Made by a program: the position numbers and the translations under genes
Assembly (NCBI GenBank): GCA_021777565.1
Contig: JAJYDJ010000002.1
Span: forward strand, 5,082 to 69,081
Source: a bacterium
Lineage (GTDB): Bacteria > Patescibacteriota > Microgenomatia > Levybacterales > UBA12049
Length of the DNA stretch: 64,000 nt
Direction: 5' to 3'
The notes under the pieces: model-generated
Databases searched by the model: none
What the model was told of the DNA's origin: nothing
What the model saw: only the letters and a program-made list of their open reading frames with translations
In this document: positions 5,072 to 57,691 of the stretch, piece after piece
Layout of the letters: each line of letters starts with the position of its first letter
How positions within the stretch are numbered: position 1 is the stretch's first letter

Positions 5072-5911
5072 TTGACTTTTTCTCAGATTCTGGTACACTT
5101 TGACTACACCGAATTTTACATATCTGCCCATGATCTGCCCTATCATATGGAAATCCCATTACCAGAAGAACCACTCATATCGATTATTCTGCCAATAAAG
5201 AATAGCGCAGAAACGCTCTTCCCGTGTCTTCAGAGTCTCCTGTTCCAGAATTACCACCATATAGAAGTAATTGCCGTTGATGACTGCTCACGAGATAACT
5301 CACTTCAGATCCTTCGTGAGTTCCAAAAGACAGACTCGAGGGTCAGAATTATCAAAAATGTAAAGACCTATGGCCGTGCGATCAGTATCAACCGTGCGCT
5401 CAAGAAGGCACGAGGTAAACTCATTGTCTTTATGGAGCCTACCGATATGATTACCGCCCAAAAGCTGTCCAAGCAGGTTGCTGAGCTTAGAAAAGACAAG
5501 CATGTCGTGGCTGCCAACAGTCAGTGTATGACCATGAACCATCTGGGCAAGCGCGTGGGGAAAAGTCACTACCCACTCCTAGCATCAGAGGCAATGCACC
5601 TTCCCTATCGCCAAAATGTACTCTTCTCAGGCATCATGATCAATAGGTACCGTATTCCTAAAGATTTACTGGACTGTGAGGCTGACGAGCCAGCACTTTT
5701 TGCCGCACAACTTATCAGTAGACTGCTCACCTATGGCGAAATCGTCACTATCCCTGAATATTTGCACACCCACATGGCACAACATCTCACTGGGCATCTC
5801 ATGCACAAATTTACCAAGAGTATTCGTGTCTGGCTTGAGGCTAAAGTAAACCACCAACAGGCACCAAGTCTCACGGCTGTTTTTGCCAATGTCATGAGCC
5901 CAGCTCTCTAG
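5072..5911 (+). CDS. Family 2 glycosyltransferase
   Basis: N-terminal GT-A motifs ISIILPIKNSAETLFPCLQSLL and IAVDDCSRDNS (DxD). Confidence 0.7.
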   Translation: MTFSQILVHFDYTEFYISAHDLPYHMEIPLPEEPLISIILPIKNSAETLFPCLQSLLFQNYHHIEVIAVDDCSRDNSLQILREFQKTDSRVRIIKNVKTYGRAISINRALKKARGKLIVFMEPTDMITAQKLSKQVAELRKDKHVVAANSQCMTMNHLGKRVGKSHYPLLASEAMHLPYRQNVLFSGIMINRYRIPKDLLDCEADEPALFAAQLISRLLTYGEIVTIPEYLHTHMAQHLTGHLMHKFTKSIRVWLEAKVNHQQAPSLTAVFANVMSPAL

Positions 5912-21797: not shown

Positions 21798-21920
21798 AAT
21801 GCTCGGCCTTGACGTATTGTCCCGTCCCCGAAGGGAGAGTATCGTCCGCGCTGGCGCGTTTCACGACTTTGTTCGGAATGGAAAAAGGTGGTTCCACGCC
21901 GCTCCAAAGACCGAACATTC
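21798..21920 (-). rRNA. rrf: 5S rRNA (ends approximate; the flanking extended helix suggests a longer precursor)
   Basis: The reverse complement contains CCATTCCGAAC and GTGAAACGCGCCAGCGC...GATACT. The ends pair (ttgctgttgaatgttcgg / ccgagcattgagcagcaa). Confidence 0.55.
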
Positions 21921-22011
21921 AACAGCAAACTTATAAATGTGCTTGTCGTAAGCTCTTAAAAAGCGAAGAGAAAAGTAACGGTTTTTAAAACATGCGTTTT
22001 AAATCTACCAC

Positions 22012-24953
<2,942 letters not shown>

Positions 24954-25194
24954 GTAGATTTAAAAATTTATTGCATGTTAAAAAAACCTGCATTTTCTCT
25001 TCACTTTTTAAAGAGCTTACATATACTCATCTGGAACTAACCCTCCCTTGCTGGAGGGCTTGTTCCAAACAACATGTAAACATGTACGCCTTGGTGGACC
25101 GGAAGAGATTTCCCCCAAGGGGACTAGCTACTTCGTAGCGGCGTCCACAGGACTAGGGTCGCTGCCCGTCGCTTCTCATCTCTTCTGAGCAACC

Positions 25195-28761: not shown

Positions 28762-31155
28762 TTATAGTTTTGCACGAAGTTGAATCTCGCGCTCTACTTC
28801 CATCGCATCACGACCAAATTTGGCTCGTGAAAGTTCTTTGAGTAGCTCTGCTACCTGTGGATTGTCTAGGGATTGCTCTCGTGCCCAATCTTTGTGCGTA
28901 TCAATCGAGAATGGTGTCACTGGGGCCCCATTCACCGTCGTTCTTACATACGCATTTTGTGCATCGATATTGATCAAATCCTGTTCTGAAAAGACTGGTT
29001 GGAACTCATGCTGCAAGAAATTGGCATCCTGAATACCCACACGGAAAGAGACTAAGGTACCTACGTTACCAAAGACAGCATTCTTCACTTCCTCATCCAT
29101 CTGCCCGATAAACTGATTGGCAACCGTTAAGTTAAGACGATACTTACGTGCTTCAGAGAAGATTTGTGAGAAGTCACTGGTTGCAAAGTTCTGGAATTCA
29201 TCGACATACAGGAAGAAGTCTTCACGCTGCTCTTCTGGGATATCCTGGCGCGACAGCGCGGCAGCCAAAATTTTTGGAATTAAGACGAGCCCTAAGAAGT
29301 TAGAATTTTCTTCCTGCAATTTTCCTTTAGACAAATTCACCAGAAGAATTTTTTTGTTATCCATCACATCACGGAATGTAAAGGCACTTTTTGACTGACC
29401 GATGATGTTTCGCATCAGCTTATTCGTTGTGAAACGGCTAAATTTGGACACGATGTAATCCAAGACTTCTGATTTATGGAAATCACTGGTCTGGGCAATC
29501 TGGTCTGTCCAATATCTCTTAATAATTGGGTCGGTCACTTTAGGTAACAGTTCCTGGACAAACTTTGAGTCAGTCAAAGCGCGTTGTACCTCGATGAACG
29601 TCCCACCTGGCTCACTCATGACCGTTAACATCACGTTTCGAATAGCGTGCTCCAGTCGGGGCCCGACAATACCGGTCTTGTGTGGATCATAGAGTTTGTA
29701 AAACAATCCGATGATGGATGACACCATGTAATGCTTCTCCATCTCCCCATATGCTTCCATAATGTTAAGCCCCATGGGACGATTTTCATCAGATGGATCA
29801 AACACAATGACATCATTTGCACGGCTTGCAGGGATACGAAGCAGTAGTTGTTCTATCAAGTCGCCGTGTGGATCAATTACACACACTCCACGCCCTGCCT
29901 CAATATCCTGCAAAGACAGTGATTTCAGCAGTTGTGATTTCCCTGTACCACTTTTACCGATAATATATAAATGTCTTCGTCTATCATCCAAGTCCACATA
30001 GACAGGTCTGGTCGCGCCGCGGAACGTACTGTTGCCGATGAATGTCCCTTGCGTTGCGATCTGTGTTGGGGCTGGAGCCCGCTTACTGGTTAGCCAGAAA
30101 ATATGCGGTGTCGTGATACTACGATTTGGGAAATGGAAAAGCGTGGCCAATTCTTCTGATGACATTACTGAAGTTTGATCATGCATTGGCCAGTAGCGAT
30201 ACACAAAATCTTCTACAACCAAGTTCTTGAAGAATGGTTTTACTTTCTTAAATGAGTTGGCACCACCGAACTGACCAAAGGTACCGGTGATATTTGAGAG
30301 GTGCTGATTGGCTCTTTCCTGAGACTGTGCTGATACCACCACGCGCACCACCACATCAAATCCAGGCTTACCGATCTTATTCTCTACTCCTTCGAGTTCT
30401 TTTGGGTCGACACCATATTTTGCTGTCTCTGGATTGGCCTCTCTTTTTTTTGTTTGGGAAATAAACTTGCGGCCAAACTTCTTCCACTTATTATCGGAGG
30501 CACTTACCATGATCTGAATCGCTGCTCCCTCCCCTTCTTCCATCTTGGCAAGGGTCGAGGTAAGAAGAGACATGCCATCCACCGGCATATCCTTAAAAAG
30601 CTTAATTGGCTGATATTTCTGCCCTTTTAATTTGAGCGTCGCAAAGGCCACCTTGCCTGTTTCTGAGAATATATTGTATTCATTTCCAATAATCCTCTTT
30701 TGTTGGGGATCTTTCTCATCAACGACCCGAATGTCCGCGTCTGGGTAGGTCGCATTGATCTGTTTCTCTACCAAATCACGCAATTTATTTGGAGTATAGA
30801 CATAGAACCTGATATCTGAGGGTTGGCCTACTATTTCAAATGACACAAATGGCTGTGGAGAGAGAAAAGCAAATCGTCCTCCCTTACGAAGTGAGGCAAG
30901 TCCTGCAAAAAGCTGTTCTGCGGCATCGATCTTATACTCATTCTCTCGAGGAACCGCAATTTGCAAAAGAACTGAGTCCAGTGACACTTGTTCACGCTTT
31001 CGATATTTATATAACAGGAGCAACACATATCCCCCGTAGTAACAAACCGTCCCAGTAACAACACAGGCAGCAAGCACGCCAACCGCAATCAAGAGTGCAT
31101 TAACCAGTGTTTCTGGATTAAAGATGAGTGGTAGGAGGTCGGTAATGTTATTCAT
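28762..31155 (-). CDS. Membrane-anchored FtsK/HerA/VirB4-superfamily ATPase (DUF87-type P-loop; T4SS-like or DNA-translocase-like)
   Basis: Two N-terminal TM helices. Walker A IIGKSGTGKSQLL followed by VIDPHGDL (HerA/VirB4-type). Walker B LYVDEFQNF. ARKYRLNLTVANQ arginine-finger-like region. Confidence 0.65.
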   Translation of the reverse strand: MNNITDLLPLIFNPETLVNALLIAVGVLAACVVTGTVCYYGGYVLLLLYKYRKREQVSLDSVLLQIAVPRENEYKIDAAEQLFAGLASLRKGGRFAFLSPQPFVSFEIVGQPSDIRFYVYTPNKLRDLVEKQINATYPDADIRVVDEKDPQQKRIIGNEYNIFSETGKVAFATLKLKGQKYQPIKLFKDMPVDGMSLLTSTLAKMEEGEGAAIQIMVSASDNKWKKFGRKFISQTKKREANPETAKYGVDPKELEGVENKIGKPGFDVVVRVVVSAQSQERANQHLSNITGTFGQFGGANSFKKVKPFFKNLVVEDFVYRYWPMHDQTSVMSSEELATLFHFPNRSITTPHIFWLTSKRAPAPTQIATQGTFIGNSTFRGATRPVYVDLDDRRRHLYIIGKSGTGKSQLLKSLSLQDIEAGRGVCVIDPHGDLIEQLLLRIPASRANDVIVFDPSDENRPMGLNIMEAYGEMEKHYMVSSIIGLFYKLYDPHKTGIVGPRLEHAIRNVMLTVMSEPGGTFIEVQRALTDSKFVQELLPKVTDPIIKRYWTDQIAQTSDFHKSEVLDYIVSKFSRFTTNKLMRNIIGQSKSAFTFRDVMDNKKILLVNLSKGKLQEENSNFLGLVLIPKILAAALSRQDIPEEQREDFFLYVDEFQNFATSDFSQIFSEARKYRLNLTVANQFIGQMDEEVKNAVFGNVGTLVSFRVGIQDANFLQHEFQPVFSEQDLINIDAQNAYVRTTVNGAPVTPFSIDTHKDWAREQSLDNPQVAELLKELSRAKFGRDAMEVEREIQLRAKL

Positions 31156-31672
31156 TGGTGTTCCCTCTTATTTTAAACACTTTTGAGAAAAGTGTCGCGA
31201 GCCAGGTAAGAGAATTAGTGACAGATGGCTTTTTGCCCAGTGCCTGCATGACTTGTTGTGCTTTTGCTTGTGACTGAGCAGAAGGGACAGGGGTTGATAC
31301 AGGAGCCGCGGTCTGCACTGCTGGTATTGCATGCGATTGGTGACCGGCAAGATCTTGCAACTTACTCTCAAGAGCTTCCACCTCTTGCTGTCGTTTCTCC
31401 TCACTCTCCTCGGCCTTTTCCTTATCAGCAGTCTCCTGTGCTACAAATACTTCCTGAACGATGTCTTGAAACGCTGATTGAAACTCTGGAGAGACAGCAG
31501 GCAGAGGCCCTGATTCTGGATTTAAATATTTTATCGATGTATTGGGATCATTATCTGGGACATCAACTGGTATCGGTACTGTTGGGTCCTGGAACACCCT
31601 TACACTGGTATCGGTCTGTAAAGACGCAGCATGTTGCACCTGAGAAGGAGCTGTCTGGCCTGTGTTTTCCAT
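31148..31672 (-). CDS. Acidic hypothetical protein, translationally coupled to the ATPase
   Basis: Its stop overlaps the ATPase start (31148 vs 31155). Glu-rich coiled-coil segment. No known domain. Confidence 0.45.
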   Translation of the reverse strand: MENTGQTAPSQVQHAASLQTDTSVRVFQDPTVPIPVDVPDNDPNTSIKYLNPESGPLPAVSPEFQSAFQDIVQEVFVAQETADKEKAEESEEKRQQEVEALESKLQDLAGHQSHAIPAVQTAAPVSTPVPSAQSQAKAQQVMQALGKKPSVTNSLTWLATLFSKVFKIRGNTNE

Positions 31673-31777
31673 ATCACTATCATAGCAATCGCCTGCCTAG
31701 AAGTACAGTATACTGATCTGAAGTGATCCATTGACACATTTTGTTTCTCTTGTACAATAAAACTAACAAGTTAACAA

Positions 31778-31932
31778 AGATCCGGGGTTCAGATCCCGGT
31801 CGATCAGGGGAAACGTGGTGAAATTCCACGGCTGTGCCGCAACTGTAAAGCCAGACTGCCTGAATCTTTGCATTGTCCTCGAGCACAGGATGTACTGTCC
31901 AAGACCTTCTCGCTCAGCAGAAGGTTTTTTTG
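31778..31932 (+). promoter_or_regulatory. Cobalamin (AdoCbl/B12) riboswitch with a terminator expression platform
   Basis: Conserved core GGGAAACGTGGTGAAATTCCACGGCTGTGCCGCAACTGTAAAGCCAGACTGCCTGA (GGTGAAATTCC, CCGCAACTGT, B12-box-like AGCCAGACTGCC). It ends in hairpin ccttct/agaagg plus T7, 25 nt before the ATG at 31957. Confidence 0.75.
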
Positions 31933-31956
31933 TATCTAAGGCTTGAGGGAAAGCAT

Positions 31957-32526
31957 ATGTACAAAAAAATCTTTTCGCCACTGAGTGTTCTTGCGTTTGT
32001 CAGTTTTTTACTGGCAGGCAGCTCCTTCTATATTCTTAGTGCACATCCGAAAGTTCTTGAGGCGACGATCGAAAAAACCATTACGGTTACAACAACACCT
32101 GTCCCCACACAAGCTACCCAAACTATTACTGCTATTGCATCTGCGCCAACAAGTCTGCCCCAACCGACAACAACTCAGTCGACAACGACTATCGTGACGC
32201 AACATACCACCACCTCAACAACTGTCAGCCAGTCAGGTCCTTATGTCGCACTCAGCCTTCATGTCGGGAGTAATCTAACCACCTGGGCAGTAAGCCTCTC
32301 TGGCACCCAGACTCCTTGCTCTATTCTGCAAGCAGCCAAAGATCAAGGGAAACTCTCCTCGCTTACCATCCAGCACTACGGTGCTCCGCTCAACAGTGAT
32401 TACGTAAAAGAGATAAATGGCAATTCTGACAATTGGACATTTACGCTCAATGGAGACAGTAAAAACATGGGATGCTCTTACTATTCACTCAACTCAGGGG
32501 ATACTGTCGTCTGGAGTTATCAATAA
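31957..32526 (+). CDS. DUF4430-domain secreted protein (beta-domain homologous to transcobalamin / intrinsic factor; putative B12-binding)
   Basis: N-terminal TM/signal. C-terminal QAAKDQGKLSSLTIQHYGAPLNSDYVKEINGNSDNWTFTLNGDSKNMGCSYYSLNSGDTVVWSY is DUF4430-like. Immediately downstream of the B12 riboswitch. SD gaggga is correctly placed. Confidence 0.65.
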   Translation: MYKKIFSPLSVLAFVSFLLAGSSFYILSAHPKVLEATIEKTITVTTTPVPTQATQTITAIASAPTSLPQPTTTQSTTTIVTQHTTTSTTVSQSGPYVALSLHVGSNLTTWAVSLSGTQTPCSILQAAKDQGKLSSLTIQHYGAPLNSDYVKEINGNSDNWTFTLNGDSKNMGCSYYSLNSGDTVVWSYQ

Positions 32527-34412
32527 CGTTTTATATGAAGCAATCAATGATAAAAAAAACAACAAGTGTCATCCTGAACATAGTGCGCCGCTACTATGTA
32601 GCAAGTGCCCTTGGGGTAAAGGATCTTTATTTAAAAAGAAGAGATTCTTCGCTCAGATTCACAAGCGCTCAGAATGACAGCATCCGACTGCTGGGAATCA
32701 TATTTTTTGCTTTATTTTTCTTAGCATCTGCTACACCGGCACTTGCTGACACCATCACCGTACATGTCGCAATAATCGATAGCACCAAAACAATTTTTTA
32801 TGGCAATGTAAATGTCGATAGTACTGGCTGCAGCGTAAAAGACACTACCAATGTAGTTCACACCTTCACTTCCCCCCTGACTGTCTGCGCCTTGGATAAA
32901 GCAGCACAAACCGGGAATTTCATGTATCAAATTGAGAATTCTTCTTTTGGGCTTTTCATCCAAGGGATTGCCAGTGACAGTGGCGCCGCTGATTTCTCTA
33001 CCTACTGGTCCTACGATGCCAGTCGAACCCTTGCCAATGTAGGTGTCGCTGATAGCACGGCGATCTTACAAAATGGTGATTGGTTGTTTTTTCATTTTGA
33101 CCCAATGGATAATAAGACGAAGGCAATTCAGTATGGCCTCGCCTATCTCAAATCACAGCAGGATAGTACCGGTAAGATCGCAGGATATGATTTCTCAACA
33201 TCACAGTTTGATGGCGCGAGCTCCTGGGCGACGCATGCCTTTGTGGCAAATGGAGTAAGTGATTTGAGCACGATCAAACTCGCCAGTGGCACCTCCCTTC
33301 TTGATTACCTGTCTTCACATAATCCAACACTCAGCGACAAAACAACTGACTGGGCCAAACATATTCTGGCCATTGTGACCGCAGGACAGGACCCATACAC
33401 CTTTGGTGGTATCGATTCAGTGAGTCAGCTTGAGACCTATACTAACAACAACCAACTCGGGAGCACAACCGCACTCAATGATGATGTGTTTGGCCTGCTT
33501 GCGCTCACTGCGGCACACGTTAGTACTGATAGCGCTGTCCTTAACGATTCTTTAAACTTTGTTCTGACACATCAGAATGGTGATGGCGGCTTTAGCTACT
33601 CGGCAACAGGAACCAGTGATGTCGATGATAGTGCCTCTACCCTCATGGCACTGGTGGCAGTGGATAAAAGTGGCCTTTCCAGCGCCTCTCTCTCAGCAGC
33701 TATTGTTCAAACCCAGCAATACTTGCTTGGCAAACAAAATGCCGATGGAGGGTTCCCTTCCGACCCATCATACGATCCCTCTTCCAATACTTCCAGTACT
33801 ACGTGGGCACTGATGGCACTACGATCACTTGGCCTAAGTGATAGTCATGTCACAACAGCAGAAAGCTTTATCGAGAAGAATCAATATCTTGGAGATGGCT
33901 CATTTGCCTGGCAGCTTGGAAGTCCAGCTGCAACAGGAGACACGGACACCTCTTCCTATGCCCTGATGGCCTTAGCGGGCAAATCATGGCCGATGACTAT
34001 CTATCAAGGCGCTATTCCAGCCCCAACACCTACCAGCACCCCATCTGGCACCATCACACCGACTCCTACTCTGACACCAACACCAACTCCTGTACCCAAC
34101 ACCCCCACCCCTACGCCTACACCCCAATCAACAACCACAACGACGACGACATATACCACTACCTACGTCACGCCAACGCCAGGCCCGACAGTAACTGCAC
34201 CAGTGGTATCAGCATCGACACTTTTGTCACCTACCCCAACCACAGCACCACTTCCTGGTGTGCTTGGAGCACAGACAATGACGTTGCCACAAAAAGTTAT
34301 TACCACTCAAACACAAGGATTCTCCTTCCCTAGCATGTTCCTGGGAGCAGGTTTTGCCTACCTGAGTATGTTTGCCCTGGAGTTAATGAAGAAATTTTCC
34401 CTATTCAAATAA
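32472..34412 (+). CDS. Secreted alpha/alpha-toroid repeat protein (prenyltransferase / squalene-cyclase-like repeats) with a Thr/Pro linker and C-terminal hydrophobic anchor. Start codon uncertain.
   Basis: Repeats include GDGGFSYSATGTSDVDDSASTLMALVAV, QNADGGFPSDPSYDPSSNTSSTTWALMAL and GDGSFAWQLGSP..DTSSYALMALAG. Signal-like LLGIIFFALFFLASATPALA follows the MITE-encoded segment. PTPT-rich linker. Confidence 0.6.
   Translation: MLLLFTQLRGYCRLELSITFYMKQSMIKKTTSVILNIVRRYYVASALGVKDLYLKRRDSSLRFTSAQNDSIRLLGIIFFALFFLASATPALADTITVHVAIIDSTKTIFYGNVNVDSTGCSVKDTTNVVHTFTSPLTVCALDKAAQTGNFMYQIENSSFGLFIQGIASDSGAADFSTYWSYDASRTLANVGVADSTAILQNGDWLFFHFDPMDNKTKAIQYGLAYLKSQQDSTGKIAGYDFSTSQFDGASSWATHAFVANGVSDLSTIKLASGTSLLDYLSSHNPTLSDKTTDWAKHILAIVTAGQDPYTFGGIDSVSQLETYTNNNQLGSTTALNDDVFGLLALTAAHVSTDSAVLNDSLNFVLTHQNGDGGFSYSATGTSDVDDSASTLMALVAVDKSGLSSASLSAAIVQTQQYLLGKQNADGGFPSDPSYDPSSNTSSTTWALMALRSLGLSDSHVTTAESFIEKNQYLGDGSFAWQLGSPAATGDTDTSSYALMALAGKSWPMTIYQGAIPAPTPTSTPSGTITPTPTLTPTPTPVPNTPTPTPTPQSTTTTTTTYTTTYVTPTPGPTVTAPVVSASTLLSPTPTTAPLPGVLGAQTMTLPQKVITTQTQGFSFPSMFLGAGFAYLSMFALELMKKFSLFK
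32578..32688. repeat. MITE-like repeat copy 2 (GTCATCCTGAAC ... GCTCAGAATGAC), embedded in the 5' end of the 32472 ORF
   Basis: About 85% identical to copy 1 over the shared module. It is read through in frame (SVILNIVRRYYVASALGVKDLYLKRRDSSLRFTSAQND). Confidence 0.6.
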
Positions 34413-34495: not shown

Positions 34496-35041
34496 TTAGC
34501 CTTTCCAAATCACTTCTTCCTGACCTTCTGTGTGATTCACCAACCGGGCACAGGTAAAAAGATAGTCTGACAGACGATTGAGGTACTGTAATATCTCAAG
34601 AGCAACTGTTTCTTTCTCATGTAGTGCCACACTACTTCGCTCTACTCGTCGAGACACAGCACGCGCATATTGCAGCAGTGCCGCTGCTTTCGCTCCACCA
34701 GGGAGAATAAAATTCTTCAGCTCAGCAAGCTTACCGGTCATTGTGTCGATTTCTTTTTCAAATTCACTGGTACGGGCTGTTAATGTCTCTAGAAACGCTG
34801 TATCAATAGGCGCCACAGGATTGGCAAGAACTGCGCCAATTGCAAAAAGATCCTTCTGTACCTGTGAGAGCATGACGCGTTGAGAATAGGACTTGGGAAG
34901 TTCGCTTATGACAACCCCCAAAAGACTGTTAAGCTCATCTATATCCCCATAGGTTTGAAGTCTGATATGCGCTTTTGAAACGCGAGAGTTATTAAAGAGT
35001 GCAGTTGTTCCCTTATCTCCAGTTTTGGTATAGATAGGCAT
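34496..35041 (-). CDS. ATP:cob(I)alamin adenosyltransferase, PduO type
   Basis: MPIYTKTGDKGTT...ILPGG...AALLQYARAVSRRVER. Start taken at the internal Met. Confidence 0.8.
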   Translation of the reverse strand: MPIYTKTGDKGTTALFNNSRVSKAHIRLQTYGDIDELNSLLGVVISELPKSYSQRVMLSQVQKDLFAIGAVLANPVAPIDTAFLETLTARTSEFEKEIDTMTGKLAELKNFILPGGAKAAALLQYARAVSRRVERSSVALHEKETVALEILQYLNRLSDYLFTCARLVNHTEGQEEVIWKG

Positions 35042-35073
35042 ACAGGCGTGAAGTGCGTCAAGCATGTGTAGGA

Positions 35074-35610
35074 TTATTTACTAACCTTTGCAATTGCTTG
35101 CCCTTTTACTAAGTGTAACACGAGCTCATAACTGCCAAACAGTACCCCTGCATAGAAGAGATCGCCAACGAGGGTGTTTCTAAAGAATGGTACTCCCATC
35201 GCGTAGCATGTCATGAGTCCTGAGAGAGTGTGTGGATACATATTCCCCATCACCCAGACACCGAAATTCGTTACGGTAAAGAAAATAACTGAAGACAGGA
35301 GTGTCACGCCAGTGATGTTGATAAAGGACTTGTGATTTCTTACAAGAAGTCCCAGAAGCCCACTCACAAGGAAACTTCCATACACAAATGGCATAACGTT
35401 ATGGAACCCGAGAAATATGTCTGAGAGAAACATCGCAACCAGTGGAACGATAAGTGCATACTTCTTGTTCAAGTATACTCCACCAAACAGTGCCATAGCA
35501 GCAATTGGAGCAACATTTGGCATGTGTGGGACTAGTCGCAAGATGACTGCGAGAGCGATAAATAGAAGTGGATTGATAAGCTTTTTCATAGGACTTGTGC
35601 GATTATACAT
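35074..35610 (-). CDS. Small 6-TM membrane protein, ECF-transporter S-component-like (candidate cobalamin S-component of CbrT/BtuM type)
   Basis: About 178 aa with six predicted TM helices. Sits between pduO and nrdJ. No ECF A/T genes are adjacent. Confidence 0.45.
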   Translation of the reverse strand: MYNRTSPMKKLINPLLFIALAVILRLVPHMPNVAPIAAMALFGGVYLNKKYALIVPLVAMFLSDIFLGFHNVMPFVYGSFLVSGLLGLLVRNHKSFINITGVTLLSSVIFFTVTNFGVWVMGNMYPHTLSGLMTCYAMGVPFFRNTLVGDLFYAGVLFGSYELVLHLVKGQAIAKVSK

Positions 35611-35701: not shown

Positions 35702-38140
35702 TTAGCATTCGCTATAGCCGCAACTATAACATTTCTTGCATCCTTCTTCGAAGACAAATGCTGCTTCACCACACTTTGGGCAAATATCCATCTTGCGCTT
35801 AAACATAGGCATCTGTGCATGACCGTTGAGTACTGGCGCTTCTTGTGCATCCAAGGTTAATTGTGCTGGTGCAGACGCTCCTGCAAGTGTCTCTGATGCA
35901 TCTTGTACAGTAAAGAATCCATAATGCATGGAGAGTGCACGTGCTACGGCATCAGGAAGACTACGCACACGATTTGGACCAAAGCCGACTGAGCGACCTC
36001 CACCAATACCTTGCAGCTGTTCGACAATCTCTCGTGCTCTTTCTCGTGCTGGCATGTGGTTACCAAATCTGAGATTGGTAGAGATAAGCCGACCCAATGC
36101 TTCAGCCATCGCCGCTACTTCACTCCCTGCTTTGCCAATGGTGACAAAGACTTCAAATGGGTTTCCTTCACTGTCTTGATTAATCGTGACAAAGGCATGT
36201 CCCAGTGGTGTCTCGATCTTATACGTTGCCCCTTCTACTTTGACGGGACGAGGCATAATAACTGCTGGCTGTGACTGTACTGGTGCTGCTTCTACTGTTT
36301 TCTCTTTTTTACTGGTTCCAAGGTTGAGTACCTGTTCATTCTTGCATCCATCACGGAATACCGTAATACCGCGGCATCCTGTCTCCCATGCCAGCATGTA
36401 TGACTTTTTAATGTCATCAACACTTGCCTCATTTGGCAAGTTAATTGTTTTGGACACACCATTATCTGTGTATTTTTGAAATGCCGCCTGCATTCTGACA
36501 TGCCACTCAGGGGTAATTTCATGCGCCGTACCAAATGCTGCGCGTACATCTGCTGGAATTTCATCAATATCACGCACAGTTCCGTGCTCTGCTACTTTGT
36601 CCATGAGTTCTTGTGAATAAAATCCTCGCTCTTTTGCGATCTTTTCAAAGAGTGGATTTACAAAGGTAAGTGTACGATTCTCACTTTTCACGATGTGCTG
36701 GTATGCGATGGCAAAGAGAGGTTCACAGCCGCCAGATGTTGCCGCAAAGATACCAATTGTCCCTGTTGGGGCAATGGTGGTGACTGTGGCATTACGAATT
36801 GGGGTGTCTTTGTAAATTGAGAACTTGCACAGAGGGAATGCGCCACGCTCTTTGGCCAGAAGTGCTGACTCTTTGTGCCCTTCTTCATTAATAAGCTTCA
36901 TGATTTGTTCTGCCAAACTGAGTGCTTCTTCACTGTCGTATGGGATACCCAACTCTACCAGCATGTCTGCCCATCCACCAATTCCAAGGCCGATACGGCG
37001 GATATTACGCACCGTGTCCTCAATCTGTGGCATGGGGAATGGATTCATCTCAATGACATCATCCAAAAGTCTCACTGCGGTGCGGGTCGCCTCTGCGATC
37101 CCATTCCAGTCGACTTTCCCGTCTTTGACAAAGTAGTTCAAGAAGATACTTCCCAAGTTACAGGCATCAAAAGGATAGAGTGGCTGCTCACCGCATGGGT
37201 TGGTACTTTCGACTTCCCATCCTTCTTTGCGGATTGGATTGGCACTACTCTGGTTAATGCGATCAATAAAGACCAGTCCTGGATCACCTGTTTTCCATGC
37301 TGACTCTGCAATTTCGTTCCAGACATCACGTGCAGGAAGCTTGCCAACTGACTGCTTGGTGTGTGGGTCGATCAAGTCATATTCCCCACCCTTTTCAAGT
37401 GCGTCCATGAATTTGTCAGTGATTGTGACTGAAATATTGAAGTTACTAATACCTGATCCATCGTCCTTGCAGTGAATAAACTCAAGAATATCTGGATGAT
37501 CTACGCGAAGAATGCCCATGTTGGCACCTCGTCGCATACCACCCTGCTTAATTTGCTGGGTTGCTTCGTTATAAATCTTCATGAAAGAGACTGGTCCGGA
37601 CGCGACACCCATGGTTGACTGTACGCGGGCACCTTTTTGACGAAGACGTGAGAATGAAAAGCCTGTTCCCCCACCACTTTTATGAATAAGTGCTTGATAC
37701 TTTACGCCATCAAAAATTCCTTCAATCGTATCCTCTACTGGAAGGACATAACAAGCGCTGTATTGCAGATGGTTATGTTTTCCGGCATTTGCCAGTGTTG
37801 GAGAATTTGGTAAGAACTTTCGAGAAAGCATCAAACCATAGAAAACACGTGCCTGATCAATCACTTCCTGACGGGTTTTCCCTTGTTTTGCTTCACCACT
37901 TGCCAGTTCCCATGCAACACGCCAGCACATCTGCTCGACGGTTTCAATTGGTTTGCCATCTGCATCTTTGAGGAAATATCTTTCTTCAAGCACTTTAATT
38001 GCCTGCTTGGTCCATGGTTCATGAACAATGTCCGTTGGCACCTCTGGGCGAGGTCCGACCAACTTCTCAACCTCCTCAACCATCTCGTCGTAGGAGAGAT
38101 GGTCCCATTGTATTTTTTTATTTTGTGTTTGTTTTGCCAT
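35702..38140 (-). CDS. nrdJ: Adenosylcobalamin-dependent ribonucleotide reductase (class II)
   Basis: Class II RNR core (…STNPCGEQPLYPFDACNLGS…). C-terminal zinc ribbon CPKCGE...CKKCYSCGYSEC. 812 aa. Confidence 0.9.
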   Translation of the reverse strand: MAKQTQNKKIQWDHLSYDEMVEEVEKLVGPRPEVPTDIVHEPWTKQAIKVLEERYFLKDADGKPIETVEQMCWRVAWELASGEAKQGKTRQEVIDQARVFYGLMLSRKFLPNSPTLANAGKHNHLQYSACYVLPVEDTIEGIFDGVKYQALIHKSGGGTGFSFSRLRQKGARVQSTMGVASGPVSFMKIYNEATQQIKQGGMRRGANMGILRVDHPDILEFIHCKDDGSGISNFNISVTITDKFMDALEKGGEYDLIDPHTKQSVGKLPARDVWNEIAESAWKTGDPGLVFIDRINQSSANPIRKEGWEVESTNPCGEQPLYPFDACNLGSIFLNYFVKDGKVDWNGIAEATRTAVRLLDDVIEMNPFPMPQIEDTVRNIRRIGLGIGGWADMLVELGIPYDSEEALSLAEQIMKLINEEGHKESALLAKERGAFPLCKFSIYKDTPIRNATVTTIAPTGTIGIFAATSGGCEPLFAIAYQHIVKSENRTLTFVNPLFEKIAKERGFYSQELMDKVAEHGTVRDIDEIPADVRAAFGTAHEITPEWHVRMQAAFQKYTDNGVSKTINLPNEASVDDIKKSYMLAWETGCRGITVFRDGCKNEQVLNLGTSKKEKTVEAAPVQSQPAVIMPRPVKVEGATYKIETPLGHAFVTINQDSEGNPFEVFVTIGKAGSEVAAMAEALGRLISTNLRFGNHMPARERAREIVEQLQGIGGGRSVGFGPNRVRSLPDAVARALSMHYGFFTVQDASETLAGASAPAQLTLDAQEAPVLNGHAQMPMFKRKMDICPKCGEAAFVFEEGCKKCYSCGYSEC

Positions 38141-38146
38141 ATATGT

Positions 38147-38596
38147 TTATGTATGTATTTGCTCTATAAGTTTTTCAAATTCAGAAATATCTGACAGGTC
38201 CATATAGACGCTTGCGAAGCGAAGCCAAGCAATTTTATCTACTGGTTTCAACTTCTTTAAGACCATTCTCCCGATAATTTTGGAGGAGATTTCACTCCCC
38301 TCTTTACGTCTAATTTCCCTTTCTATGTCATCCACCATCTGGTGAATAAAGTCTATAGAAATCGGACGCTTCGCGAACGATCTTACAATGCCTCTTACGA
38401 TCTTATCCCTCTCAAACGCTTCCCTGCCGCCATCACGCTTGATGACAAAAAGACTTGGACCTTCAATGCGCTCAAATGTCGTGAATCGCCTTTGACAGGC
38501 ATTGCACTCACGCCTTCTTCTTAAAGATTCCCCGTCTTCTGCTATTCGGGACTCAAGTACTGATGTATCTTGTGATCCGCAAAATGGACATTTCAT
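38147..38596 (-). CDS. nrdR: Transcriptional repressor NrdR
   Basis: MKCPFCGSQDTSVLESR...CNACQRRFTTFE zinc ribbon plus an ATP-cone. Confidence 0.9.
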   Translation of the reverse strand: MKCPFCGSQDTSVLESRIAEDGESLRRRRECNACQRRFTTFERIEGPSLFVIKRDGGREAFERDKIVRGIVRSFAKRPISIDFIHQMVDDIEREIRRKEGSEISSKIIGRMVLKKLKPVDKIAWLRFASVYMDLSDISEFEKLIEQIHT

Positions 38597-56579: not shown

Positions 56580-56996
56580 GGGGATGCATTGATTCGACAA
56601 GATCGCACGTTAACAAATCGCAAGCCGACTTTGAGTACCAGTCGTAAAACAGATTCAACAATTAAATGCTGACGGAATAATCAGCAAGGTGCGTCAAGCC
56701 ACTACGCAAGTATTGGCAGACATGGGCAACGTTGTTGCTCCATCTTATCAAAGAGCTTATCTCTTTGCATAAGGCACTGTCCTTACTCTTTTTCTCGGTG
56801 AAGAGTTTGGGCTAAAACACAGCTGAGAGAACGAGTTTTTACTGCGGTAAACGGTAGAAATTAGCTTTTATTTATCTAGTCTATGTTTTTCCTGTTGATG
56901 GGAACAGAAGATAGGCGAATTTTTTATACATCAACTACGCTTGTAGACGTTTGTTTTCCTGTATTTTGGACTGGGGCTCGTTACCCCACATCTCCA
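56580..56996 (+). ncRNA. ssrA: tmRNA (SsrA), one-piece
   Basis: 5' GGGGATGCATTGATTCGACAAG. 3' tRNA-like end GGACTGGGGCTCGTTACCCCACATCTCCA, whose acceptor pairing gives G3:U70. Directly downstream of smpB. Confidence 0.8.
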
Positions 56997-56998
56997 CA

Positions 56999-57691
56999 CT
57001 ATTCGTCTTGCTCTCTGGCAAGACATAAGCCATATACCCTTCTTACACCATTGTGTTTGAGTATTCTTGCAGCTTCCATGAGTGTAGACCCTGTGGTGAG
57101 CACGTCATCCACTAGAAAAACAATCGATTTTTCAACATTAGAAGTTAACACAAATGCATCTCGCATATTACTCTTTCTCTCTAACGGTGAAAGCCCAAAT
57201 TGTGCCTTCGTGTTTTTCTGTCGTATCAAACAGTTTGAGACAGGCATATGTACCAATTCCCCAAGTTTTTGGGCAAGCAGACGTGACTGATTATATCCTC
57301 TCACGCGTTCTCTCCTGCGATGCAGTGGTATTGGTATCAATACCCCTTCCCCACGACTCAGCAGTTCCCCTACAATTTCCTTTTGAATAAGACTTTCATA
57401 CATGAGCGTAGAAAGAAATCCTGCCATATGAGAAAGATATGGCTCATATTTAAATTGATATAAAAGCGTATTAATGATGTGTTTATATGAAAGTGCGCAA
57501 AAAACGCCATCTAGTGAGTATCGATTCTGACATGCGGGATGCGTAAGGCCATCTAGCGATGGTTTATTGCAGACACAGCAAAGATGTTTGACATCAAATG
57601 AGAGTTTTGCAAAACATCGTGTACACAGATACTCTCCCCATCTTTGACAGATCACACAATACGTTGGAAAAAGAAGATCGATAAGACCCAC
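56999..57691 (-). CDS. ComF-family protein (phosphoribosyltransferase domain)
   Basis: N-terminal CxxC zinc ribbon (CVICQRWGEYLCTRC...CCVCNK). C-terminal VFLVDDVLTTGSTLMEAA PRTase motif. Confidence 0.7.
   Translation of the reverse strand: MGLIDLLFPTYCVICQRWGEYLCTRCFAKLSFDVKHLCCVCNKPSLDGLTHPACQNRYSLDGVFCALSYKHIINTLLYQFKYEPYLSHMAGFLSTLMYESLIQKEIVGELLSRGEGVLIPIPLHRRRERVRGYNQSRLLAQKLGELVHMPVSNCLIRQKNTKAQFGLSPLERKSNMRDAFVLTSNVEKSIVFLVDDVLTTGSTLMEAARILKHNGVRRVYGLCLAREQDE

Follow-up and report, generated by a model that had tools for sequence, protein, structure and literature searches.

A short-class cobalamin riboswitch before transcobalamin-like beta-domain and toroid proteins: a candidate B12-capture locus in a Candidate Phyla Radiation bacterium

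Results

Genes and features of the locus

We analysed a 64-kb stretch of bacterial DNA (contig JAJYDJ010000002.1, positions 5,082 to 69,081; hereafter the window), in which a cobalamin (B12) riboswitch stands before two adjacent open reading frames (ORFs). ORF1 encodes a DUF4430 beta-domain protein, and ORF2 a larger protein built around an alpha/alpha toroid. An original prediction, made from the letters of the DNA alone, had read the two as the separately encoded halves of a surface-anchored, transcobalamin-type B12 binder. Our analysis indicates that they are likely to capture B12, in an arrangement that differs in part from the one proposed. The leader and the two genes comprise the following features.

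31731..31758, + strand: near-consensus sigma-70-like promoter, TTGACA-16 nt-TACAAT (11/12 matches)
31791..31867, + strand: cobalamin riboswitch aptamer of the short class (RF01689 AdoCbl-II, clan CL00101), from the Rfam covariance model
31876..31890, + strand: small hairpin UCCU-CGAGCAC-AGGA between aptamer and terminator, from the leader alignment
31901..31931, + strand: intrinsic terminator, a 10-pair stem (31901-31928) and a T7 run (31925-31931)
31957..32526, + strand: ORF1, 189 amino acids (aa), with N-terminal anchor, Thr/Pro/Gln-rich linker and C-terminal DUF4430 domain (PF14478, AlphaFold2, Foldseek)
32535..34412, + strand: ORF2, 625 aa (621 aa from the ATG at 32547), from the ORF call
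32679..32747, + strand: signal-peptide-like or anchor segment of ORF2, LLGIIFFALFFLASATPALA, then DT (hydropathy)
32748..33101, + strand: putative divergent N-terminal beta-grasp (DUF4430) domain of ORF2, mature residues 1-118 (profiles)
33111..33974, + strand: alpha/alpha toroid of ORF2, mature residues 122-409 (AlphaFold2 model)
33615-33632, + strand: SDVDDS (DxDD) motif, ORF2 mature residues 290-295 (profile alignment)
34014..34412, + strand: ~100-aa Thr/Pro-rich linker, C-terminal hydrophobic stretch and Lys-rich tail of ORF2 (read from the sequence)

A short-class riboswitch and terminator precede ORF1

Scanning with Rfam gave a match to RF01689 that covered the model end to end (positions 1-81) and scored 47.3 bits against a gathering score of 36.5 (E 2.5e-8 over the whole window, 1e-10 in a local scan). 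This was the sole riboswitch in the window at Rfam gathering thresholds. The cobalamin riboswitch that had been predicted is therefore present, the best-scoring model being the short variant class and not RF00174. The motifs on which the prediction had relied, GGTGAAATTCC, CCGCAACTGTAA and AGCCAGACTGCC, were located in the sequence, as were the terminator hairpin and T7 run that it had named. Short-class aptamers such as env8 are said to prefer small upper ligands. The aptamer sits between the promoter and ORF1 on the same strand, with the terminator downstream of it, and a GAGGG sequence stands 7 nt 5' of the ORF1 ATG at 31957.

We aligned the leader with those of related loci. The TTGACA box was aligned in the three loci L002-L004, whose leaders also align with the window's aptamer, small hairpin and terminator; Rfam missed their aptamers because of an insertion of ~18 nt. 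Homologous aptamers lie 5' of the same genes in L005, L008, L012, L015, L028 and others. The terminator is kept in L002-L005, and the small hairpin, with covarying stems, in L002, L003, L005 and L006. In L006 the 3' arm of this hairpin overlaps the ribosome-binding site and no terminator comes after it, suggesting that the hairpin has a regulatory role. It is probably the regulatory hairpin of the expression platform, judging from these alignments, and its form suggests a likeness to the kissing-loop partner of short-class B12 riboswitches. When the leader was folded by minimum free energy, the terminator hairpin was the only robust element; the fold was not significantly better than those of shuffled sequences (z -1.79) and did not reproduce the aptamer.

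ORF1 has the transcobalamin beta-domain fold

As predicted, the gene after the riboswitch encodes a DUF4430 protein (PF14478, E 2.1e-8, 34.9 bits against a cutoff of 23.8). ORF1 consists of a hydrophobic N-terminal anchor, a Thr/Pro/Gln-rich linker of ~60 aa and the DUF4430 domain, a transcobalamin-like beta-grasp, at residues ~93-189. Searching PDB sequences with a profile of the ORF1 family gave no match, and a fold search was needed. The AlphaFold2 model of the domain had a predicted local distance difference test score (pLDDT) of 89.5. Its PDB matches 1-19 in Foldseek were chains of transcobalamin, haptocorrin and intrinsic factor together with 3u7z (TMq 0.62-0.77), and they took in the isolated human transcobalamin beta domain. 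The 3u7z entry, a DUF4430 structure from Ruminococcus gnavus, was the only bacterial DUF4430-like match. These 19 best matches verify that the fold of the ORF1 domain is that of the transcobalamin and intrinsic-factor beta domain, an equivalence that the prediction had taken from general knowledge.

ORF2 joins a beta domain to a toroid

ORF2 had been described as a 646-aa protein. A maximal reading frame of that length exists, but it overlaps ORF1, and the likely starts are the ATG at 32535, which comes 8 nt after the ORF1 stop (625 aa), or that at 32547, used in the source gene call (621 aa). Hydropathy placed hydrophobic segments near the N-termini of both ORF1 and ORF2, in agreement with the proposed surface anchoring. 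The C-terminal hydrophobic stretch of ORF2 fell below the hydropathy cut-off used; with its Lys-rich tail, we take it as a putative membrane anchor. Before the signal-like segment ORF2 carries a basic N-terminal extension of ~50 aa (32535-32680, + strand), and ORF2 homologues have ordinary signal peptides of 20-30 aa at the position of that segment. Two explanations would fit this extension: it is the cytoplasmic tail of a signal anchor, or the true start lies downstream and went unrecognised. At the other end, the C-terminal tails of the toroid family carry the motif [VIL]LG[AESDT], typically VLGAxT (21/60). In at least six family members (P0023, P0027, P0028, P0030, P0031 and P0034) LP[AST]VG comes after this motif and leads into a hydrophobic helix with an Arg/Lys tail, which amounts to a sortase-like sorting signal; the window tail (34250-34412, + strand) reads VLGAQT...LPQKV...TM...KK.

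The mature part of ORF2 (residues 72-493), modelled by AlphaFold2 with 86 homologues, gave a confident structure (pLDDT 91.3, predicted template modelling score 0.88) in which mature residues 1-118 were beta-rich with one helix. Compared with PF14478, this region remained below the cutoff (15.2 bits, E 0.03). Homologues 40-50% identical to ORF2 match PF14478 at ~1e-8 to 1e-9 in the same place, with the toroid after it, and when PDB sequences were searched with a profile of the domain, the intrinsic-factor beta domain and 3u7z ranked best. The same profile aligned with the ORF1 family at an hhalign E of 7e-5; a profile-profile comparison was needed, since the ORF1 family, aligned by hhalign with the lone N-terminal sequence of ORF2, gave nothing. 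These profiles identify the N-terminal domain as a divergent beta domain of the transcobalamin type. Because ORF2 has a beta domain of its own, it is not half of a split protein: both halves are in one chain, beta then alpha, and ORF1 is a second, extra beta-domain paralogue beside it. The two folds of the proposed split pair are thus present, but they are not divided between the two genes of the window.

Mature residues 122-409 form, in the same model, an (alpha/alpha)6 toroid of about twelve helices and ~290 aa, the fold that had been anticipated from the repeats. At the sequence level ORF2 matched SQHop_cyclase_C (E 3.6e-7, above cutoff), Prenyltrans (9e-6) and also SQHop_cyclase_N. The toroid superimposes on the alpha domain of transcobalamin, but class II terpene cyclases are its nearest solved relatives, closer than transcobalamin. 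Foldseek matched the ORF2 model to drimenyl diphosphate synthase at E 6.8e-8 and to transcobalamin at E 6e-6, rank 15. In the search of PDB sequences with the family profile, squalene-hopene cyclase (5.6e-38) and drimenyl diphosphate synthase (1.9e-37) were matched, and no transcobalamin chain was found among the best 60 of 83 matches.

The family motif S-D-x-D-D-T-A, represented in the window by SDVDDS, aligns on the catalytic DVDDTA of squalene-hopene cyclase. Among the 86 relatives, D291 is conserved in 82, D293 in 78 and D294 in 68, with Met in place of the third Asp in 12 and Asn in place of the second in 7. The class II cyclase acid motif DxDDTA is, as a side observation, retained here in a secreted, single-toroid, B12-linked family; large class II cyclases have two toroids (beta-gamma) and ORF2 has one. 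NCBIfam cyclase models scored ORF2 at 37 bits against a cutoff of 322.7 (TIGR01787) and 18.7 against 431 (TIGR01507). The conserved polar and acidic loop motifs of the toroid (LNDDxFG, SDVDDTA, SNxSST and ETFTT) would, from their inferred position, line its funnel. We read the toroid as a cyclase-like scaffold that may have been recruited as a binding funnel.

Neighbouring genes place the pair in a B12 context

Four genes on the opposite strand are convergent with ORF2.

34496..35065, - strand: PduO-type ATP:cob(I)alamin adenosyltransferase (PF01923, E 3.3e-55; TIGR00636, 179.8 bits against a cutoff of 108)
35074..35610, - strand: DUF6580 membrane protein, CbrT homologue (PF20221, E 1.4e-54; profile against 6fnp_A)
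35702..38140, - strand: NrdJ, adenosylcobalamin-dependent class II ribonucleotide reductase (NF006417, 1024.7 bits against 961; TIGR02504, 697 against 400)
38147..38596, - strand: NrdR repressor (Zn_ribbon_NrdR and ATP-cone)

A single-sequence search of PDB with DUF6580 reached only E 0.19 and was no more than suggestive until a profile had been built. The family profile matched 6fnp_A at E 9.8e-12 over residues 4-172 of 182. The 6FNP entry is the structure of the ECF-CbrT cobalamin transporter of Lactobacillus delbrueckii, where ECF denotes energy-coupling factor (Santos et al. 2018, PMC5997447). Its chain A is deposited merely as "Membrane protein"; we take it to be CbrT itself, because it is 182 aa long and fits the S-component profile. 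By this profile match DUF6580, a family of unknown function in Pfam, is assigned as a full-length CbrT homologue. It is unusually conserved, the best 120 of 2943 matches being 58-70% identical and coming from several CPR (Candidate Phyla Radiation) phyla. Our literature search returned no publication on DUF6580.

In L. delbrueckii, cbrT lies in the nrdJ-cbrS-cbrT-pduO cluster of the characterised B12 transporter (PMC5997447). DUF6580 is likewise clustered with nrdJ and pduO in the window, in a setting like that of a B12 auxotroph. The neighbours therefore mirror the L. delbrueckii cluster, and we counted this in favour of B12 capture. The B12-uptake context that DUF6580, PduO and NrdJ give to ORF1 and ORF2 is strong.

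The arrangement recurs in CPR relatives

To survey relatives of the toroid protein, we took one genome per species and searched with patterns derived from 21 close sequences, which yielded 157 relatives. The best 80 are almost all titled as Patescibacteria-type metagenome-assembled genomes and include Levyibacteriota, Microgenomates, Saccharibacteria, Roizman-, Davies- and Woykebacteria and many Parcubacteria; going by submitter labels, a dozen or so are "uncultured Gammaproteobacteria" and one is Verrucomicrobiia. Since the search patterns came from CPR sequences, this set is biased towards CPR.

The layout of L002-L004, about 50% identical, is the same as that of the window. In related loci the riboswitch, the small DUF4430 gene and the toroid gene recur in the same order, so the arrangement in the window is not due to chance. 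Among the 40 closest CPR loci, 13 have a cobalamin-clan riboswitch at gathering level, in every case on the strand of the gene. The aptamer core motif TGCCG[CT][ATC]AC[CT]G was found on the gene's strand in 31 of the 40, mostly 300-1000 nt 5' of the toroid gene, and of all 88 loci, 50 carried it on the + strand and four on the - strand. This motif scan, with the minus strand as control, replaced a covariance model because the MAFFT alignment of 14 aptamers was too ragged on its 3' side. A small DUF4430 gene lies directly upstream of the toroid gene in 36/40 (hmmsearch E <= 1e-3). DUF6580 is encoded within 3 kb of the toroid gene in 22/40 and is absent from the 3-kb flanks in 18/40; it follows the ORF2 homologue on the same strand in L005 and L006, in L005 together with PduO.

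Most toroid proteins in the survey are without the N-terminal beta domain, their matches beginning near residue 126 (L008 is an example). The truly split pair, as originally envisaged for the window, is therefore the majority form in CPR relatives, and the arrangement in the window is a subtype in which a further beta domain is fused to the toroid. More distant relatives of ORF2, in other bacteria, have the toroid and an ECF S-component/DUF6580 domain joined directly in a single chain, and one complete operon (L007) combines an RF00174 riboswitch (87.7 bits) with a DUF4430 protein, CbiQ, a double ABC ATPase and an S-component-toroid fusion. These fusions and this operon show that the linkage of toroid, beta domain and CbrT-like S-component is general. 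Two distant relatives (P0043 and P0051) have the domain order of transcobalamin, toroid then beta.

Two of the related loci, L010 and L011, carry a second AdoCbl-II riboswitch after DUF6580 (5743-5820 and 5719-5787, respectively), with pduO between the two in L010. The ORF after it is longer than 440 aa and continues beyond the end of the locus; the copy in L011 had no Pfam match, and the one in L010 is, by visual comparison, its homologue. This ORF is an unknown B12-regulated CPR gene.

Other features of the window

The following features lie outside the B12 module, the first two directly upstream of it.

28762-31155, - strand: large DUF87/TrwB-like (DUF8128) ATPase
31148-31672, - strand: small unannotated protein
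21801-24961, - strand: 23S and 5S ribosomal RNA (rRNA) genes
56580-56999, + strand: transfer-messenger RNA (104 bits)

In L002 and L003 the ATPase is found at the same place, and in L008 it comes directly after the module; neither it nor the small protein has an evident functional tie to B12. A prophage or mobile-element origin, which the ATPase had suggested, was dropped, as relatives have the gene in synteny and it has no bearing on the finding. No 16S rRNA was found anywhere in the window, and the rRNA genes appear unlinked. The transfer-messenger RNA match exceeds the model by ~45 nt and has a large insertion in the region past the resume codon.

Discussion

We conclude that ORF1 and ORF2 probably capture B12, and that the locus is most likely a B12 (corrinoid) salvage island of a Saccharibacteria-like CPR (Patescibacteria) bacterium. 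Counted in favour of B12 capture are the riboswitch with its terminator, the fold of ORF1, the neighbouring genes, the toroid/S-component fusions, the conservation in CPR and an independent prediction made in 2007 (PMC1796856). Several observations weigh on the other side. ORF2 has no match to PF01122, and only three of the 86 relatives match it, weakly (best E 0.002), so that a sequence-level match to the transcobalamin alpha domain is lacking. The riboswitch in the window governs ORF1 and ORF2 only, DUF6580, PduO and NrdJ being on the other strand. Searching the window by phmmer with the L007 proteins found no ABC ATPase or CbiQ/EcfT homologue, and hence no ECF energising module there; any energising partner of DUF6580 is encoded outside the window. 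In the literature we found no published B12 binding for any bacterial member, and the only experimentally studied split pair, from Lactobacillus sakei, is linked to haem uptake (bioRxiv 10.1101/864751).

The locus would most likely work as follows. Transcription from the strong promoter would run through the short-class riboswitch. With sufficient intracellular cobalamin, the ligand-bound aptamer would favour the terminator and ORF1 and ORF2 would not be made, and when B12 is scarce read-through would express them. Both proteins would leave the cytoplasm and stay tethered to the membrane through long Thr/Pro-rich linkers, ORF1 at its N-terminus and ORF2 at its C-terminus. By analogy with transcobalamin and intrinsic factor, one corrinoid may be clamped with the polar, acidic toroid funnel on one side and a beta domain on the other. 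In most relatives it is ORF1 that is kept as the partner of toroid-only proteins, and it would most likely be a mobile primary binder that docks on the toroid, or else a ligand relay; we hold this division of labour between the two beta domains with less confidence than B12 capture as a whole. The CbrT-like S-component (DUF6580) would then take over the corrinoid and import it, and after adenosylation by PduO it would serve NrdJ in deoxyribonucleotide synthesis. An extension of this scheme, which we consider unlikely, is that B12 uptake throughout CPR runs by a self-contained relay without an ECF energising module, made up of a tethered beta "fishing" protein, a toroid receptor and the solitary, conserved CbrT-like protein. 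The DxDD funnel might there strip or exchange the axial or lower ligand, or select cobinamide-like precursors from the host surface.

The likeness of the toroid to class II terpene cyclases raises the question of whether ORF2 is instead an extracellular enzyme of the class II terpene cyclase/prenyltransferase superfamily that uses its DxDD motif, with a host-derived isoprenoid as substrate or with the corrinoid itself being processed. Squalene-hopene cyclase and drimenyl diphosphate synthase belong to the class that gave the best toroid matches in both sequence and structure, and they have DxDDTA in common with the family, in which the motif aligned on the catalytic residues is kept in most of the 86 relatives. 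Moreover, several top-ranked cyclase matches (8paj, MstE 6sbb and 6ij1) themselves have no more than ~330-350 residues, so that a small protein is in itself compatible with catalysis. Nevertheless, a single toroid of ~290 aa stands against the two-domain squalene-hopene, oxidosqualene and drimenyl-diphosphate cyclases of about 470-730 residues, and the NCBIfam scores are far below the family cutoffs (37 against 323 bits). ORF2 is also secreted and tethered, the Met and Asn replacements recur at the third and second Asp, and transcobalamin-like beta domains and CbrT-like S-components always accompany the toroid, by linkage or by fusion, downstream of B12 riboswitches. On this balance we regard an enzymatic ORF2 as very unlikely.

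The ligand and the relevance of the pair can be questioned as well. Uptake of haem or of another soluble ligand by ORF1 and ORF2 would follow the proposal for the L. sakei Lsa1836-1840 ECF-like operon (2019), in which the split transcobalamin-like beta (Lsa1839) and alpha (Lsa1840) proteins are tied to haem uptake (bioRxiv 10.1101/864751). It would also answer to a caution raised by a reviewer and printed with the 2007 work, that members of this clade of beta domains might have other ligands than B12 (PMC1796856). We find this the least probable of the readings considered: a cobalamin riboswitch precedes the genes here and in most relatives, PduO, NrdJ and a CbrT homologue adjoin them, and hemin did not compete with B12 for transport by ECF-CbrT (PMC5997447). 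There is a similarly slim chance, as for the enzyme, that ORF1 and ORF2 are general surface or cell-wall proteins with an incidental link to the riboswitch and that DUF6580 alone imports B12. ECF-CbrT works without extracellular capture proteins, CbrT-type S-components binding B12 at high affinity by themselves (PMC5997447); DUF6580 is far more conserved than ORF1 and ORF2, and it is missing from the flanks of the toroid gene in the 18 loci noted above. Against this, the riboswitch directly precedes ORF1-ORF2 and not DUF6580, both here and in most relatives, toroid/S-component fusions exist, and among solved structures the beta-domain fold is specific to B12 carriers. It may be added that solitary CbrT gave no uptake in Escherichia coli (PMC5997447).

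B12 capture by ORF1 and ORF2 would also fit what has been proposed for related proteins. The original prediction had considered the architecture unusual, but it had already been described by Burroughs, Balaji, Iyer and Aravind in 2007 (Biol Direct 2:4, PMC1796856). That paper describes secreted bacterial proteins with transcobalamin-like beta domains fused on either side of an alpha/alpha toroid, in operons with a second paralogous beta protein and CbiO/CbiQ neighbours and in hosts without B12 synthesis. A B12-scavenging role was predicted for them, and animals were proposed to have gained transcobalamin from such bacteria. The window shares the secreted or anchored fusion of beta-grasp and toroid, including the beta-then-toroid order, and the second beta paralogue in the operon. 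In contrast, that work dealt mainly with Firmicutes and archaea with CbiO/CbiQ neighbours, whereas the host here is a CPR bacterium and the partner is a stand-alone, CbrT-like DUF6580 with no ECF module nearby; riboswitches and the DxDD motif of the toroid are not mentioned in its available text. The L. sakei operon likewise encodes separate exported beta and toroid proteins beside an ECF S-component. It differs in being assigned to haem, with no mention of a B12 riboswitch in the text at hand, and ORF2 has an additional fused beta domain.

In transcobalamin, intrinsic factor and haptocorrin an alpha6/alpha6 toroid comes first and a beta domain forms the C-terminus, the opposite of the order in ORF2. 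The window further differs from these mammalian carriers by its extra, separate beta protein, its membrane tethering, the missing PF01122 match of ORF2 and a toroid that is nearer to terpene cyclases and bears DxDDTA. Receptor-mediated endocytosis has no place in it, and delivery would go to an S-component. From the class II cyclases, on the other hand, ORF2 is set apart by its single toroid, its extracellular location and its B12 context.

The locus thus belongs to a kind already predicted computationally, and its architecture, the extra beta paralogue and the B12 role were predicted in 2007 (PMC1796856). To these our analysis makes modest additions, namely the CPR-wide conservation behind short-class B12 riboswitches, the identification of DUF6580 as a CbrT homologue and the retained DxDDTA motif. 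We found no publication linking CPR bacteria to the beta/toroid module, and the literature that we found on DUF4430 holds incidental mentions only.

CPR bacteria have minimal genomes and obtain cofactors from hosts or neighbours. For such an organism the locus would be a compact, riboswitch-gated route that supplies adenosylcobalamin to the class II ribonucleotide reductase and hence to DNA synthesis, and many CPR phyla have the same module. Through its homology to CbrT, DUF6580, so far a Pfam family of unknown function, gains a functional assignment. As a bacterial counterpart of the human B12 carriers, the module, with its small and well-modelled domains, would offer convenient targets for testing the 2007 hypothesis that animals acquired transcobalamin from bacteria.

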